Below, piece after piece: positions 3,007-8,772 of a stretch of 64,000 bases of DNA. A program made the translations under genes and the position numbers. How positions within the stretch are numbered: position 1 is the first letter of the stretch; each line of letters starts with the position of its first letter. The DNA is from Acidimicrobiia bacterium (lineage in GTDB: Bacteria; Actinomycetota; Acidimicrobiia; Spongiisociales; JAOTWH01), in assembly GCA_041619955.1 (NCBI GenBank), contig JBFKDA010000001.1, positions 7,307 to 71,306 on the forward strand, in the 5' to 3' direction. The notes under the pieces were generated by a model. The model was not told the origin of the DNA, did not search any database, and was given only the letters and a program-made list of their open reading frames with translations.

Positions 3007-4626
3007 TCAGGACTCGAGGACCACGTCCGAGAACTGGTCGCGCAGCACCTTCTTGTCGAACTTGCCGGTGCCGGTCTTCGGCAGCTCGTCGAGGAAGACG
3101 ATGTCGTCGGGCAGCCACCACTTGACGACGCGGTGCCCGAGGTGATCCAACAGCTCCTCCTTGGTGGCGTCGACGCCGGGGCGGAGCACGACGGCGGCCA
3201 TCGGCCGCTCCTGCCACCGGACGTGCTTGACGCCCACCACAGCCGCCTCGGCGACCGCCGGGTGGGCGGCCAGCTCCCGCTCGAGGTCGAGCGACGAGAT
3301 CCACTCCCCACCGGACTTGATCACGTCCTTGGCGCGGTCGGTGATCCGGATGTAGCCGTTCGGCTCGATCTTGCAGACGTCGCCGGTCCGCAGCCAGCCG
3401 TCCTGGAACGACTGCGGTGTCCGGGGATCGTTGAAGTACTCGGCGGCGATCCACGGGCCGCGGATGAGCAGCTCGCCGAACGCCTCGCCGTCGTGGGGCA
3501 GCGCCTCGCCCGCCTCGTCCACGATCTTGCACTGGAGGCCGGCGATGAGCAGGCCGGCGGTCTCGAGGTACTCGAGCTGGCGGTCGAGGTCCCAGTCCTC
3601 CATGCCCGGCTTCAGCTGGGCGACGGCCGCCACCGGGTTGGTCTCCGTCATCCCCCACCCCTGCACGACTTGGATCCCCTGCGCCTCGTGGAACCACTCG
3701 ATCATCGCCCGCGGCACGGCCGACCCCCCGCACAGGAACGCCCGGATCGAGGCGATGTCCTCGTCGGGGTTGTCCATGAGGTGCTGCTGGATGCCGCCCC
3801 ACACGGTGGGCACGCCTGCCGAGAACGTGACCTGCTCGTCGCGGAACAGCTTCACCAGCCCGGCGGGGCTGAGGTCGGGGCCCGGGTACGTGAGCTTGGC
3901 GCCCTGGGTCACGGCCATGAACGGATATCCCCATGCCGAGGCGTGGAACATCGGCACCACCGGCAGCACGTTGTCGTGGGGCGTGATCGCAAAGTTCGCC
4001 AGATTGCTGAGGGTGTGCATGTAGGTGGAGCGCTGCGTGTAGGCGACGCCCTTGGGGTTGCCGGTGGTGCCCGACGTGTAGCAGTACATCATCGGTGACC
4101 GCTCGTCGAGCTCGGGCCACGCTCCCCACGGCTCCTGGTCGGCGATGAGATCCTCGTAGGCGATGGTGTTCGGCAGCGTGGTGTCGGGCACCTCGGCACC
4201 CATCACGACGAAGCGCTCGACGGTGGTGAGCTGCTCGGCGAACCGCTCGACGAGCGGCACGAGGTCGGGGTCGACGAAGATCACCCGGTCGCGGGCGTGG
4301 TTGACGATGTACGCGAGCTGGTCGGGGAACAGCCGGATGTTCAGCGTGTGGCAGACGCGGCCCGTGTTGGCGGTGGCCCAGTACAGCTCGTGGTGGCGCT
4401 GGTTGTTCCACGCGAAGGTGCCGACCGCGTCGCCGATCTCGCAGCGCAGCGGTCCGGCGATCGCGGCGGCCAGCCGCCGCACGCGGTCGTCGGTCTCGCC
4501 GTAGGTGTGGCGGGCTCGGGACAGGTCGTGCTCCACCGAGACGATCTCCCGCTCGGGGTACAGCCACACTGCCCGGTCGTACAGCGTCGACAGCAGGAGG
4601 GGGAAGTCATCCATCATGTGCGGCAT
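3007..4626 (-). CDS. Fatty-acid--CoA ligase (AMP-binding acyl-CoA synthetase, FadD-like)
   Basis: AMP-binding motifs YTSGTTGNPKGV and GWGMTE, plus a C-terminal GDVCKIEPNGYIRITDRAKD...GGEWISS. RBS GAGGAG 8 nt upstream of the ATG at 4626. The 1080-aa track ORF is an artefactual N-terminal extension. Confidence 0.9.
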   Translation of the reverse strand: MPHMMDDFPLLLSTLYDRAVWLYPEREIVSVEHDLSRARHTYGETDDRVRRLAAAIAGPLRCEIGDAVGTFAWNNQRHHELYWATANTGRVCHTLNIRLFPDQLAYIVNHARDRVIFVDPDLVPLVERFAEQLTTVERFVVMGAEVPDTTLPNTIAYEDLIADQEPWGAWPELDERSPMMYCYTSGTTGNPKGVAYTQRSTYMHTLSNLANFAITPHDNVLPVVPMFHASAWGYPFMAVTQGAKLTYPGPDLSPAGLVKLFRDEQVTFSAGVPTVWGGIQQHLMDNPDEDIASIRAFLCGGSAVPRAMIEWFHEAQGIQVVQGWGMTETNPVAAVAQLKPGMEDWDLDRQLEYLETAGLLIAGLQCKIVDEAGEALPHDGEAFGELLIRGPWIAAEYFNDPRTPQSFQDGWLRTGDVCKIEPNGYIRITDRAKDVIKSGGEWISSLDLERELAAHPAVAEAAVVGVKHVRWQERPMAAVVLRPGVDATKEELLDHLGHRVVKWWLPDDIVFLDELPKTGTGKFDKKVLRDQFSDVVLES

Positions 4627-4771
4627 CGGGGCACTCCTCGGGGCGGTGGGCGAAAGCCAATCTAACCGGCACGCTCGGCGCCGGTCCGGGAACCGGTAAC
4701 ACGGAGAGCGCACGTGCGCCGACCCGCCGTGGTTATGCTCGCGGGGCACACGCCCCCTGGGAGGAACGACC

Positions 4772-5977
4772 GTGGCCCGTCGCGCCATCACCGGCGCGCT
4801 GCTGTTCGCCGGCAGCGGCGCCGAGCCCACCCCGTCGACGACGGTGGTGTGGGAGGGCGCAGAGATCCTCTGGGTCGGACCGGACGGCGACGCCGACCTG
4901 GGCGGCGCGACGCAAGTGGACGCCGGCGGGGGCACGGTGCTGCCGGGCCTCATCGACGCACACGTGCACCTGTGCCTCGACGCCACGCTGGACGGCGTGG
5001 AGCGGGTGGCGGAGGAGCCGCGCGCCAGGCTGGCGAACCGCGCGGCGCAGTCGGCGCGCCAGCTGCTCGACGCCGGCGTCACCACTGCGCGCGACCAGGG
5101 CTCGCGCGACGGCGTGGCGATCGACGTGGCTTCGGGCCAGCGGGGGGCGTGGATGATCGGCGCCCGCATCCTCGCCGCCGGCCGGGGGATCACGACGCCG
5201 GGGGGGCATGGATGGATGATCGGGGTCGAGGCCGAAGGGCCTGCGGCCGTCCGGGAGGCGGTGCGGACCGAGATCGAGCGCGGTGCCGACGTGATCAAGC
5301 TGTTCCCGACGGGCGGGGTGCTCGGCAGCGGCGCACACGGGTTCACGGTCACGATGAGCGTCGCCGAGGTCGCGGCTGCGGTGGACGAGGCGCACGAGCG
5401 CGGTCGGCTGGTCGGTGCGCACGTACACGGCCCGGAGGGCGTCGACGTGGCGTTGGACGGCGGCGTCGACACCATCGAGCATGGCACCGGCCTCACGGCC
5501 GAGCAGGCGGCCCGGATGGCGGCGGAGGGCGTGGCGCTGGTGCCGACGCTGGCCGCCCTCCACGCGATCGTCGACAGGGTCGGGGACGTGCCGCCCGAGC
5601 TCGCCCAGCGGGCGCGAGAGATGCTGGAGCTGGCCGGCGACGGGGTGCGGCGGGCAGTCGAGGCCGGGGTGGCCGTGCTCGCCGGCACGGACGCTGGGAC
5701 GCCGTTCAACCCGCCGGGCAACTTGCTCGCCGAGCTGCGGCTGCTGGCCGACCTCGGCCTCGGCACCGCGGGCGCGTTGCGGGCCGCCACGTCACAGGCG
5801 GCCGCCGTGCTCCGGCTCGACGCGTTGGGCACGGTGGAGGCGGGCCGGTGCGCAGATCTCGTCCTGGTGGGCGGCGACCCGCTGGCCGACCTCGGGGTGC
5901 TCGGCGAGCCTCGCGTCGTGGTGCAGGACGGGAAGATGCGCGTGCTGAGCGGGACGTGGTACGGGCCGGACGTATGA
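4772..5977 (+). CDS. Metal-dependent amidohydrolase (imidazolonepropionase/Xaa-Pro dipeptidase-like)
   Basis: HVHL and HGT motifs with a conserved TDAGT aspartate region. GTG start with RBS GGGAGGA upstream. Confidence 0.85.
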   Translation: MARRAITGALLFAGSGAEPTPSTTVVWEGAEILWVGPDGDADLGGATQVDAGGGTVLPGLIDAHVHLCLDATLDGVERVAEEPRARLANRAAQSARQLLDAGVTTARDQGSRDGVAIDVASGQRGAWMIGARILAAGRGITTPGGHGWMIGVEAEGPAAVREAVRTEIERGADVIKLFPTGGVLGSGAHGFTVTMSVAEVAAAVDEAHERGRLVGAHVHGPEGVDVALDGGVDTIEHGTGLTAEQAARMAAEGVALVPTLAALHAIVDRVGDVPPELAQRAREMLELAGDGVRRAVEAGVAVLAGTDAGTPFNPPGNLLAELRLLADLGLGTAGALRAATSQAAAVLRLDALGTVEAGRCADLVLVGGDPLADLGVLGEPRVVVQDGKMRVLSGTWYGPDV

Positions 5978-5978
5978 G

Positions 5979-6005
5979 CGGGCCCGCAGCCGCCTGCCGG
6001 GCCCG
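5979..6005. terminator. GC-rich 8-bp palindromic stem-loop between convergent genes (candidate bidirectional terminator)
   Basis: cgggcccg ... cgggcccg inverted repeat between the amidohydrolase stop (5977) and the minus-strand PH-domain gene stop (6014). No U-tract, which is usual for actinobacteria. Confidence 0.3.
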
Positions 6006-6013
6006 GCCGGGCT

Positions 6014-6637
6014 CTAGAGCTTGTCGAGCAGCTTGGCCTTCTGGGCGGCGAACTCGTCGTCGCTGAGCCGGCCTTCGGCGTGCAGGCGGGCGAGGCGCTC
6101 GAGCTGTGCGGTGGGATCGGAGGCGGCGTGGTCGGAGACGCCGGGTGAGCGCTGGAGGTTGTGCGACCGCTCCTCCCGGATACGGTAGATGAGCGACTGG
6201 AACTCCTCGGGCTCCGGGATGTCGTGGAAGTGGCTCTGGCCCTGCTCACCCGCCGACTCGATGAGCAGATCGCCGGAGCGCAGCAGCCGCTCGATGACCG
6301 TCTGGCTGAACTGCACGTCGTTGATGTTCTCGAGCGGGATCTCGACGCCGCGTCTCGCGATGAATCCGGACCGGCGGATGAGGCGTTCGTTGGTCAGGAC
6401 GTAGTGGGTGAACCACCAGTGGATGAAGGGGCGGACGCCCCACCAGAAGATGAAGACCGCGGCGGCGGCAGTGACGATCCAGTTGACGACGACGGCGGGG
6501 TCCCACAGCCAGACGAGCACGATCGCCGCGAGCGAGAGCAAGACCGCGCCGACGGGGATCGCCAGCAGTCGCCAGTGCGGCCGGAAGTCGCGGACGATCT
6601 CCTCGCCTTCGGTGAGGAGTCTCTTCGGGTAGGGCAT
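6014..6637 (-). CDS. Membrane bPH_2 (YdbT/DUF304-like PH domain) protein with C-terminal SHOCT domain
   Basis: 207 aa. Two TM helices followed by the PH-like segment NERLIRRSGFIARRGVEIPLENI. C-terminal SHOCT signature LERLARLHAEGRLSDDEFAAQKAKLL. RBS GGAG upstream of the ATG at 6637. Confidence 0.8.
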   Translation of the reverse strand: MPYPKRLLTEGEEIVRDFRPHWRLLAIPVGAVLLSLAAIVLVWLWDPAVVVNWIVTAAAAVFIFWWGVRPFIHWWFTHYVLTNERLIRRSGFIARRGVEIPLENINDVQFSQTVIERLLRSGDLLIESAGEQGQSHFHDIPEPEEFQSLIYRIREERSHNLQRSPGVSDHAASDPTAQLERLARLHAEGRLSDDEFAAQKAKLLDKL

Positions 6638-6649
6638 CGTTCTCCATCC

Positions 6650-7968
6650 TAGAGATAGCGGAAACCCCGAGGGAGCTTCGACCGAGGTCTCCACCCTCTC
6701 GGGGTTTCCAGCCGGTTTGGCGATTGGACCCTTGCGGGACCCCGTCGCCAACCCTGATGGACACTCCTTGCGGATCATCCACCTCGCCCGGTCGGACTCC
6801 GGCCGAAGCCGGAACCTCCGGGCTGACGGGCCGCAACCGCCCGGGTCCGCTAGACCCGTCCGGCTGGCTCCCTTGCGGAAGCGCCGACCCGCCCACTCCC
6901 CGTTCGACGTGCCGGACCCGAAGGCCCTGCCCGCCGGCAACCTCTAGCGGAGGCGCCGGGGAGCGCCCCCATCCGGCCCTTGCGGGCCTTCCGGGGGCTC
7001 CCGACCGACCCTTGCGGGCCTCTCGGGAGGCCGCCCGTCCGGTTTCCCGTTCGGGCAACGGCGGGCAATGTAGGGGGGTGCCGCGGCCCCCGTCAAGCTG
7101 AGGCGCTACTTCGTTTTCGCGACCGCCGAATCGTTTTCGCGCTTCCACACCGCAGGTCGGACGAGCCAGCCGCAATGCAGGTCGGACGAGCCAGCCACAT
7201 TGCAGGTCGGACGAGCGTCGTGGTGCGGTGCCGCGCAGTGCGGGCTCGCCGACCTGCGGGCTGCCGCGGTCCACCTGCGCTTGGCGCGCGGCCGGCGCTG
7301 GCGCGCCGGCCTGGAACCGTCACTTGGCTGGTCGGACGCGCGTCGTGGTGCGGTGCCGCGGATTGCGGGCTCGCCGACCTGCGGCTGCCGCGGTCGCTAG
7401 GACGTTTGGGCGTGGCCGGCGCTGGCGCGCCGGCCTGGAGCCAACCATTCTACTTCGTTGCGGATACCGCGCCGAGGGTCCGTCGCCGAAACGCAGCCTG
7501 CCCCCAACCGCGCAACTGCCCGGCGCCGAAGCGCCGGGCAGTTGATGAAGCCCCGAAGGAACCTCCGCCGAAGCATCGGCCCCTCCGGGGCTTCGACCGA
7601 AGCGGTCTTTCGACCCCTCCGGTACCCGTGCTTCCGGCCGAAGCCTTCCGCTCGGGCTGGCGTTGCGCCGGGTTCGACCCGGCTGACCCGAAGGCCCTCC
7701 GGGCCGTCCTCCCGAAGGAGGCCCCCGGCGCAACCTCCCCGAACCTTGCGGCCCGGGGAACCTCACCGAGCCTTGCGGCCCTGTGAAGCCGCCTCTCCGG
7801 GTGTTACCCCTTCGAGGCAGCGGCAATGTACGTGCCGGTCCCCCCCGTCGTCAAGCTGAGGCCATGGTTAGATTTCGCGACCGCTCGTTTCGTTTTCGCG
7901 ACGATCGGAACCGGCCCGACGCGGCGGGGAACTACACGCGTGTCACTCGCGCCGCGTATAGTGCACCC
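6650..7968. repeat. 1.3-kb ORF-free repeat- and hairpin-dense divergent intergenic region
   Basis: It contains seven copies of CCTTGCGG(G/C)CC. A 25-bp unit GCAGGTCGGACGAGCCAGCC repeats 2.6 times (about 7151-7215). A roughly 125-bp unit repeats twice (7205-7329 and 7330-7454). Each large unit carries the hairpin ggtcggacg..gctcgccgacc and the perfect palindrome ggccggcgc-tggc-gcgccggcc. Two diverged roughly 300-bp modules (about 6780-7140 and 7590-7900) both end in ggcaatgta..ccccc..gtcaagctgagg..tcgttttcgcg. An 11-bp stem hairpin lies at 6661-6708. Confidence 0.75.
7941..7968 (+). promoter_or_regulatory. PafBC/RecA-NDp-type damage-inducible promoter driving a leaderless transcript of the Cas4-like nuclease
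   Basis: TGTCACTC - N8 (gcgccgcg) - TATAGT with the ATG 6 nt after the -10 hexamer. This matches the actinobacterial RecA-NDp architecture tTGTCRgtg-N8-TAnnnT with leaderless start spacing. Confidence 0.5.
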
Positions 7969-8772
7969 ATGCCCCATGAGCCGCTCGCCAGCCTGTCGCC
8001 GAGCCGGGCCAGTGACTTCAAGACCTGCCCCCAGCTCTTCAAGTTCCGCGCCCTCGACCGCCTCGAGGAGCCGGCGACCACCTGGCAGGCGCGGGGCACC
8101 ACCGCCCACCTCGCCCTCCAACAGCTCTTCGACCTGCCTCCCGCCGAACGCAGCCCCGGTGCGCTCTACGACCTGTTCCGGCGCGCCTGGTCGTCGGCTC
8201 GCGACGACGAGTACGCCGGGCTGTTCGGCGATCAGGACGCCGAACAGGAGTGGGGTGTCGAGAGCCTCACGCTGCTCGCCAACTACTTCGGCCTGGAGGA
8301 TCCCCGCACGTTCGACCCGCTCGACCGGGAACTCGACGTGACCGAGGAGGTCGACGGGATGACGATCCGGGGGATCCTCGACCGCATCGACGAGACCCCC
8401 GACGGCGACCTCGTCATCACCGACTACAAGACGGGCAAGGCGCCGCCCCAGCGGTATGCGCTCCCGGCGTTCTTCGCCCTCAAGATCTACGCCATGCTCA
8501 TCCGCCGCCAGACCGGCCGGACGCCGGTCGAGTTGCGGCTGCTCTACCTCAACGGCCCGACGATGTACAGCATCGCCGTCACCGACCGCCAGCTCGACGC
8601 TGTCGAGCGGCACGTACGGGCGCTGTGGACCGCCATCGACCGGGCGATCTCCGGAGACCACTTCCCGGCCCGCACCGGTCCCCTGTGCGGATACTGCTCG
8701 TTCCAGGATCGCTGCCCGGCATGGAGCGAGGCGCCCGCCGCCGAGCCTGCGCTGGCGGCCGCCGGCGCGTAG
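7969..8772 (+). CDS. Cas4/RecB-like PD-(D/E)XK exonuclease with 4Fe-4S cysteine cluster (DUF83-type)
   Basis: N-terminal FKTCPQLFKF (first Cys). ITDYKTGK nuclease motif. C-terminal CGYCSFQDRC (C-x2-C-x5-C). No CRISPR/cas context nearby. 267 aa. Confidence 0.85.
   Translation: MPHEPLASLSPSRASDFKTCPQLFKFRALDRLEEPATTWQARGTTAHLALQQLFDLPPAERSPGALYDLFRRAWSSARDDEYAGLFGDQDAEQEWGVESLTLLANYFGLEDPRTFDPLDRELDVTEEVDGMTIRGILDRIDETPDGDLVITDYKTGKAPPQRYALPAFFALKIYAMLIRRQTGRTPVELRLLYLNGPTMYSIAVTDRQLDAVERHVRALWTAIDRAISGDHFPARTGPLCGYCSFQDRCPAWSEAPAAEPALAAAGA

Follow-up and report, generated by a model that had tools for sequence, protein, structure and literature searches.

Two putative tandem genes for structured RNAs with a shared terminal hairpin beside a Cas4-like nuclease gene in Acidimicrobiia

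A 64,000-nucleotide stretch of an Acidimicrobiia genome (assembly GCA_041619955.1, contig JBFKDA010000001.1; hereafter the window, with a G+C content of ~70-77%) contains an intergenic gap at positions 6638-7968. The gap is bounded by a bPH_2/SHOCT membrane protein gene on the minus strand and a PD-(D/E)XK nuclease gene on the plus strand. Its length is truly exceptional, because the neighbouring intergenic gaps in the conspecific assembly L081 span just 10-145 bp, as against ~1.1-1.2 kb for this one. None of the five longest open reading frames (ORFs) within the gap matched Pfam at E<=0.1, and no tRNA or tmRNA was found in the window. A sequence-only reading of this DNA had pointed to the unusual length of the gap, the lack of a credible ORF, seven copies of CCTTGCGG, a 25-bp repeat, a 125-bp unit present twice, a perfect 9-bp palindrome, two diverged modules with a common end, and TTTCGCGAC direct repeats about 21 bp apart. 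All of these features were recovered; the strand, the promoters and the tetraloops had gone unrecognized. As detailed below, the region probably comprises two paralogous, independently transcribed minus-strand genes for structured noncoding RNAs (ncRNAs), termed RNA L and RNA R, with a strain-variable repeat spacer between them (Table 1).

The minus strand proved to be the informative one. The end shared by the two modules, read on the plus strand as ggcaatgta...gtcaagctgagg, is the reverse complement of TTGACG-N18-TACATT, and a promoter scan for which 0.1 sites would be expected returned two of the sigma-70 type, each on the minus strand. The TTTCGCGAC direct repeats correspond to two pairs of TTTCGCG boxes (7115-7141 and 7873-7902) spaced 20-21 bp from start to start, against 0.00 pairs expected. 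The module ends (7064-7126 and 7822-7884) are 73% identical, and the full modules of ~300-400 bp align at 75% column identity. The right-hand module, previously described as overlapping the nuclease promoter, abuts it back-to-back instead. All seven copies of CCTTGCGG (6730-7778) lie on the plus strand, where ~3 would be expected for the whole 64-kb window; on the minus strand they read CCGCAAGG, a GCAA tetraloop of the GNRA type closed by a C-G pair. Likewise, the plus-strand motif CCGAAGG becomes CCUUCGG, with a UUCG loop. Seven more CCTTGCGG/CCGCAAGG sites occur in the other 62.7 kb (22778, 25932, 29997, 32803, 34027, 47696 and 59369), above chance window-wide, and these may be GCAA-capped terminator hairpins at gene ends.

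The predicted folds of both RNAs are strings of short hairpins. Counting stems of 4 bp or more, RNA L and RNA R each contain three GNRA and three UNCG tetraloop hairpins on the minus strand; the plus strand has none. Relative to dinucleotide-preserving shuffles, the minimum free energy reached -267.8 kcal/mol for RNA L (7060 to 6655; z=-9.2) and -220.7 kcal/mol for RNA R (7818 to 7505; z=-10.5).

Table 1 Predicted RNA genes, their elements and the flanking genes in the window
Feature	Position	Strand	Description
RNA gene L	6655-7060	-	~405 nt, predicted start near 7060; hairpin string with GCAA/UUCG tetraloop caps
Upstream boxes of RNA L	7115-7141	-	CGCGAAA at 7141-7135 and GTCGCGAAA at 7123-7115
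Promoter of RNA L	7067-7096	-	predicted; -35 TTGACG at 7096-7091, 18-nt spacer, -10 TACATT at 7072-7067
H hairpin of RNA L	6709 to 6660	-	GGAAACCCCGAGAGGG...CUCCCUCGGGGUUUCC, then tail UUUCCGC; nhmmer H match
Inter-gene spacer	7142-7504		363 nt; 25-bp repeat (x2.9), 125-bp repeat (x1.9) and both palindromes
RNA gene R	7505-7818	-	~310 nt, predicted start near 7818
Upstream boxes of RNA R	7873-7902	-	GTCGCGAAA at 7902-7894 and 7881-7873; divergent promoter region common with the nuclease gene
Promoter of RNA R	7825-7854	-	predicted; -35 TTGACG at 7854-7849, 18-nt spacer, -10 TACATT at 7830-7825
H hairpin of RNA R	7593 to 7546	-	~50-nt hairpin, then CUUCAUC and a second hairpin
Second hairpin of RNA R	7544-7513	-	perfect 14-bp stem with UUCG loop, directly after H
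Left flanking gene	6017-6637	-	ATG at 6637; 207-aa membrane protein with bPH_2 and SHOCT domains
-10-like hexamer of the bPH_2 gene	6646-6651	-	TAGGAT, 8 nt upstream of the bPH_2 ATG
Right flanking gene	7969-8772	+	267-aa PD-(D/E)XK nuclease (RecB-family, Cas4-like); Pfam PF12705, E=7.6e-38
-10-like hexamer of the nuclease gene	7958-7963	+	TATAGT, 5 nt before the nuclease ATG; read from sequence

Differences within the species were concentrated outside the predicted genes. Two conspecific assemblies, L081 and L082, whose nuclease protein is 100% identical to that of the window, differed from it at 13-15 positions across 6600-8000. The RNA units and their promoters (885 nt) contained no differences from L081 (0/406 in RNA L and 0/314 in RNA R) and two from L082, and the 363-nt spacer contained 9-13 differences, including 13 of the 15 substitutions of L081. 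This distribution indicates strong purifying selection on the RNA units.

The spacer itself carries the repeats that dominate the appearance of the region. Tandem Repeats Finder reported the 25-bp repeat at 7145-7216 and the 125-bp repeat at 7205-7439 (88% matching), and the palindrome GGCCGGCGC-TGGC-GCGCCGGCC, with 9-bp arms, occurs at 7290-7311 and 7414-7435. Zero GNRA or UNCG loops were found in the spacer, no counterpart of it exists in L084, a relative of 83% identity, and both conspecific assemblies hold a single 125-bp copy compared with two in the window. A BLASTN search for dispersed repeats, one of the checks suggested by the sequence-only reading, yielded for the spacer and the 300-bp middle repeat no matches in the 64-kb window better than those of Markov-1 controls. 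The spacer is best read as fast-evolving slippage or duplication debris, probably unconstrained, between two constrained genes, because it is strain-variable, substitution-rich, free of tetraloops, without a counterpart in L084 and without dispersed copies. Such debris had been named beforehand as the reading to adopt if the repeats proved confined to this locus, untranscribed and not conserved in relatives. The 125-bp duplication fits that reading, since it is species-unique, its copy number varies between strains, and the spacer contains nearly all within-species substitutions. The inter-unit spacers of other genomes also hold short tandem repeats (in L011, GTACTTC x3 and GGGTACT-like repeats at 4890-4860), and arrays of this family seem generally prone to repeat instability upstream of the boxes.

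The distribution of the units was investigated in 80 genome loci fetched via alignment of nuclease homologs, the nearest of which occur in metagenome-assembled genomes of Acidimicrobiia at 64-100% identity. Two nhmmer profiles were used, one covering the boxes and the promoter (P) and the other covering the ~50-nt hairpin that ends both window units (H). As a result, units running from P to H were identified in 73 of the 80 loci, in one to five tandem copies (five in L011), and in nearly every case they lay ahead of the nuclease gene in divergent orientation. Seven loci contained no units; five of these have at most 1.4 kb of upstream flank, and the other two, L035 and L037, have the nuclease gene at 5001 with a full 5-kb upstream flank and showed no promoter or H element near it. 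The lineage of L035 and L037 may have lost the family, may carry it at another site, or may have versions too diverged to be recognized.

A metagenome scan was based on the pattern CGCGAAA-N13-15-CGCGAAA-N17-19-TTGAC alone and matched at least 120 contigs. Among the matches listed, at least 72 carried a true P and at least 70 an H, and the nuclease, units, bPH_2 and AMP-binding context recurred in every listed contig with enough flank. The other 48 listed were chance pattern matches in unrelated contigs of 33-71% G+C. All loci with units (at least 145) share one gene context. No other unit copies occur in the 64-kb window, and none of the 18 pattern matches in viral contigs was an H hairpin by profile. 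The two RNA genes can accordingly be placed, on sequence grounds, in a family kept in one to five tandem copies at this locus in the related Acidimicrobiia examined.

The promoters are the most regular part of the family. In 199 distinct promoter copies, both CGCGAAA boxes, the TTG of the -35 element and the TA..TT of the -10 element were 99-100% conserved, a value inflated by the metagenome copies, which were picked by the box and -35 pattern. The spacings were also fixed, with a 21-nt register of the boxes and an 18-nt spacer between -35 and -10. The box pair also occurs at internal units of tandem arrays, which have no adjacent protein gene, and the boxes are therefore assigned to the RNA promoters. 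In a scan for other genes behind the boxes, which covered the metagenome matches listed and was not exhaustive, the boxes occurred only at RNA-unit promoters, in addition to the 48 chance matches. The sequence directly after H (UUUUCGCG or UUUCUCGCGUC; L011 3005-2995; A5 columns 50-60) resembles an inverted promoter box, CGCGAAAA. With this copy counted, convergent boxes would flank each unit on both sides, and the downstream one could be a DNA site, a signal for the RNA 3' end, or chance.

Between promoter and terminal hairpin, the bodies vary in length and sequence. By length, the units formed two classes, one short and narrow (142-196 nt) and the other long and variable (238-831 nt); on the same P-to-H scale, the window units measure 277 nt (R) and 405 nt (L). 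Many genomes, such as L084, have a short unit beside the nuclease gene and a long unit beside the bPH_2 gene. Across 115 distinct units, tetraloop hairpins numbered 305 GNRA and 265 UNCG on the sense strand (570), compared with 14 and 30 on the antisense strand (44), and their density was ~17 per kb in units versus ~1 per kb in the rest of the window. The predicted hairpin loops were dominated by UUCG (330), GAAA (107), GCAA (101) and GAGA (71), together ~85%, and A made up 45% of the unpaired non-loop bases versus 17% overall. The long bodies align poorly between lineages. RNAalifold, applied to mixed short units and to 27 medium units, recovered H alone because the bodies do not align (the mixed short units also gave a 4-bp 5' stem). 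Two subtypes are distinguishable among the short units, and a four-hairpin consensus fold was obtained for both. One subtype of ~150 nt exhibits a fully invariant 10-nt hairpin loop within GGGGGCCCGCUUUCC in 17 of 17 copies, flanked by covarying stems. Units with GGGGGCCCGCUUUCC were carried by L012 (around 4739), L014, L021, L030, L034, L043, L055, L063, L070, L078 and others; the loop is absent from the two RNAs of the window.

H is the sole RNA element common to all family members. Its 136 distinct copies align gap-free, with 95.8% of cells paired and nine of the 18 pairs changed on both sides (96 cells). The observed values were matched by none of 500 shuffles, and the signal collapsed in slid controls. 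The lower stem CCCGAG/CUCGGG is near-invariant, and a G.U wobble is present in all 136 copies. The stem is interrupted where an A faces a C, and a purine-rich 2x2 internal loop is followed by a 3-bp stem with a UUCG cap. H is a helix with sequence-specific features, not an exposed single strand, and this pattern argues for a constraint exceeding what a terminator needs. The consensus tail after H is UUUCUCGCG. Judged as intrinsic terminators (stem plus U-tract), the two window copies end in the tails given in Table 1, and a simple terminator scan called neither. In RNA R, whose H lacks a U-rich tail, the second hairpin probably serves as the effective terminator. That hairpin also gave a weak chance match to the Rfam model Rubella_3 (23 bits versus a gathering score of 35). 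Overall, each gene is predicted to consist of two CGCGAAA boxes, a near-consensus sigma-70-type promoter, a variable body of tetraloop hairpins and the near-invariant H.

The genes on either side of the array appear to be transcribed on their own. The left flanking protein matched the Pfam families bPH_2 (E=2.5e-19) and SHOCT (E=4e-6), and its gene follows the RNA array as a conserved neighbour, lying downstream of the last H and on the same strand in 79 fetched loci. A TANNNT hexamer precedes the bPH_2 start codon by 6-8 nt in most of 53 loci in which H and ATG are at most 160 nt apart, which would give the gene a promoter of its own and an mRNA with little or no leader. The TATAGT-N6-ATG arrangement at the nuclease start recurs in L011, and the nuclease mRNA is probably leaderless. 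Both flanking genes lack a Shine-Dalgarno sequence and have TANNNT 5-8 nt upstream of the start, and the occurrence of this pattern in ~50 related loci suggests leaderless mRNAs for the flanking genes. Leaderless transcripts are prevalent in Actinobacteria. Because the bPH_2 and nuclease genes each have their own -10-like hexamer, the RNA units are regarded as independent genes.

Genes near the array encode an AMP-binding enzyme, an amidohydrolase, a glutamate dehydrogenase, a DUF488 protein and AdnAB; the glutamate dehydrogenase gene and the AdnA/AdnB-like helicase-nuclease genes lie farther right in the window. According to the annotation of L081 (1033-2238), the amidohydrolase gene occupies 4772-5977 of the plus strand, between the AMP-binding and bPH_2 genes. 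A minus-strand ORF of 1080 aa (3007-6249) is an over-extended high-GC ORF, in which only the C-terminal ~540 aa represent the AMP-binding enzyme. Public gene calls seem to have been misled by the RNA array: in L081 the called nuclease (4001-4909) is 35 aa too long and extends into the intergenic region, and in L084 a called 287-aa ORF (325-1188) without a Pfam hit spans RNA units.

Comparison with known RNAs did not place the family. A search of the 64-kb window with Rfam 15 (4227 models) gave no match at the gathering threshold, and E-value mode on 6400-8200 and six related loci, with both short and long units, returned only sub-threshold matches well below the gathering scores. A literature search on such an RNA family found nothing relevant, and the family appears to be undescribed. 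To our knowledge, no small RNA (sRNA) biology or regulatory RNA has been characterized in Acidimicrobiia. Multi-copy RNAs under the control of a regulator include RsmX/Y/Z (with the GacA upstream activating sequence), OmrA/OmrB (OmpR boxes), LhrC1-5 (LisR) and the NsiR1 array of Nostoc. The architecture of the window genes is most like these, with head-to-tail paralogs, an own promoter with an upstream box, a terminal hairpin and a variable centre. In contrast to them, the window family, which shows no sequence or Rfam relationship to any of these RNAs, has no GGA loops (as in Rsm) or family-wide CU-rich seed, varies five-fold in size, and conserves the terminal helix itself. A GGA sponge of the CsrB/RsmZ type was rejected, as the loop census is dominated by UUCG, GAAA, GCAA and GAGA and GGA-type loops are rare. 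A type III toxin-antitoxin RNA array was rejected as well, given units of 150-800 nt with their own promoters, paralogs only 75% identical, and a downstream gene that encodes a bPH_2/SHOCT membrane protein and has its own promoter.

6S RNA is a rod-like molecule of ~160-200 nt in which the 5' and 3' ends are paired around a large central bubble. The units described here differ from 6S and Ms1 in their predicted folds, which have 4 to ~15 independent hairpins and a local 3' hairpin instead of a rod with a central bubble, and from 6S in their lengths of 142-831 nt. Tandem multi-copy arrays, moreover, are not described for Ms1. The two groups resemble each other in other respects: like Ms1, 6S and CoRP, the window RNAs fall within 150-500 nt, are highly structured, and lie in a long intergenic region of a high-GC actinobacterium behind a strong promoter and before a 3' hairpin. 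Ms1/MTS2823/scr3559, 6S RNA and CoRP are abundant RNA-polymerase-binding RNAs of Actinobacteria (PMC9130861, PMC4191392, PMC11077062). An RNA immunoprecipitation sequencing study of RNA-polymerase-bound RNAs in Actinobacteria argued that lineage-specific abundant RNAs are probably still undiscovered (PMC11077062). A gene for a 'PH domain' protein is a recurrent neighbour of Ms1 in Cellulomonas-type genomes (PMC9130861). Synteny typical of Ms1 would place a HAD-IB hydrolase gene on one side and an oxidoreductase or PH-domain gene on the other. In the synteny check, the bPH_2 gene was found to adjoin the RNAs, PH being one synteny word of Ms1 (PMC9130861), and the other neighbour is the nuclease gene. 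The HAD-IB hydrolase gene that anchors Ms1 was not among the genes immediately flanking the region or the nearby ones named above, the part of the window that this check covered. Neither the H nor the P profile matched Ms1 of S. coelicolor at E<=10 (PMC9130861 supplement; a single Ms1 sequence), and blastn of Ms1 against 119 units gave one chance match (E=0.18). Identity with Ms1 or 6S was rejected on the lack of an Rfam match, of similarity to S. coelicolor Ms1, and of a rod-and-bubble fold.

Three interpretations of the region had been offered in the sequence-only reading, and that of a structured ncRNA locus is now supported and sharpened to a pair of independent RNA genes on the minus strand, both of which have a promoter and a terminal hairpin of their own. 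That the two units are ncRNA genes is very likely. The idea that the region in its entirety represents neutral duplication debris, or a mobile element of the non-autonomous miniature inverted-repeat transposable element (MITE) or repetitive extragenic palindromic (REP) kind that has decayed, draws on the behaviour of the spacer, with its strain-variable duplications, fast substitution and missing counterpart in relatives. GC-rich imperfect palindromes clustered in an intergenic region also recall REP, bacterial interspersed mosaic element (BIME) and MITE sequences. The units, however, are not dispersed but locus-specific, promoter-bearing and strand-specific; further copies were found neither in the window nor in viral contigs, those elsewhere all occupy one orthologous slot, purifying selection on the units appears strong, and a search of the sequence showed neither terminal inverted repeats nor target-site duplications, which leaves this account with hardly any credence. 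The same negligible weight is given to unannotated proteins or small peptides. Long ORFs do run on both strands, and one was called over the orthologous array in L084, but no ORF, the called one included, matched Pfam, such ORFs are expected by chance at 70% G+C, and homologous units differ by many indels and range in length from 150 to 800 nt, the conserved signal being base pairing and not codons. For an expanded regulatory region with TTTCGCGAC operators, half of the earlier proposal held: the boxes are real and invariant in the 199 promoter copies, yet they serve the RNA promoters. In many loci, box 1 of the right unit does precede the nuclease start by ~55-75 bp, and the right-hand box pair could additionally affect the divergent nuclease promoter. 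That the boxes are operators of the nuclease gene and the hairpins incidental is nevertheless very improbable, as a box pair precedes every internal array unit far from the nuclease gene, the boxes are always followed, 18 nt downstream, by -35 and -10 elements that point away from that gene, and strand-specific tetraloops and covariation in H would be left unexplained.

A cis-acting role was also weighed, in which the left-hand unit is a riboswitch-like 5' leader or attenuator whose terminator read-through controls the bPH_2/SHOCT gene and the other unit is a duplicated leader. The last H lies 22-150 nt upstream of the bPH_2 start in about two-thirds of the 79 loci, the gene stays with the array in rearranged loci (L001, L044, L066 and L072), and in the window only 22 nt separate the end of H from the bPH_2 ATG. 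This role is still quite improbable, because the hexamer before the bPH_2 start implies a leaderless promoter of its own, the nuclease-proximal unit and the internal units of four- to five-copy arrays have promoter and H with no gene following, and the hypervariable bodies show no conserved core like a ligand pocket. A riboswitch or attenuation leader was rejected on the same hexamer and on the many units without a downstream ORF. Somewhat more room remains for base-pairing sRNAs, that is, tandem paralogs targeting mRNAs by an exposed seed like OmrA/B or LhrC1-5, although we regard them as unlikely. Such sRNAs would fit the architecture of tandem paralogs equipped with upstream boxes, a terminator and a strong promoter, and the invariant loop in the GGGGGCCCGCUUUCC units of other genomes could be a seed. 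The window RNAs are without that loop, nearly all predicted loops are structural tetraloops, no single-stranded segment is conserved family-wide, and no site complementary to the invariant loop was found in any fetched locus.

Several points weigh against the proposal of two RNA genes and what they might do. Promoters, transcription starts and 3' ends are predictions throughout, every sequence derives from a metagenome-assembled genome, and the conservation of the promoter copies is affected by the selection described above. The H of RNA R has no U-rich tail and is followed by a second hairpin. With bodies from ~150 to ~800 nt that align poorly between lineages, much of the body could be weakly constrained. 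Covariation in the body of RNA R is modest; relative to L083 (82% identity), 20 pairs were changed, of which 13 still pair (three by double changes) and seven break. The protein-binding mechanism outlined next is drawn from the conservation pattern and is correspondingly tentative.

If the two units are RNA genes as proposed, RNA polymerase would start ~7 nt downstream of each TACATT, near 7818 and 7060. Output would be set by DNA (A-tract) curvature or a factor acting at the phased CGCGAAA boxes, transcription would stop at H, and the tetraloop-rich body would make the RNA very stable. The RNAs may then act in trans as abundant protein-binding or protein-titrating RNAs recognized through H, and not as seed-pairing sRNAs. 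Recognition by a protein is put forward as the most likely mechanism because H is the one shared element and a sequence-specific helix, but even so it is offered only as a possibility. A bolder and rather doubtful version, by analogy, would make the family the Acidimicrobiia counterpart of 6S, Ms1 and CoRP, with abundant multi-copy RNAs binding RNA polymerase or another global protein through H and dosage adjusted by copy number and the box factor. Functional coupling with the adjacent Cas4-like nuclease is more remote.

Acidimicrobiia are abundant in soils, sediments and waters and are mostly uncultured. The signature, in which a promoter with two boxes precedes a body of tetraloop hairpins and an invariant hairpin at the end, can be used for annotating their genomes, where it removes spurious ORF calls and N-terminal extensions. 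The H hairpin and the putative box-binding factor offer concrete experimental handles. If the RNAs are indeed protein-sequestering global regulators, they would fill in Acidimicrobiia the slot held by 6S, Ms1 and CoRP in other Actinobacteria.

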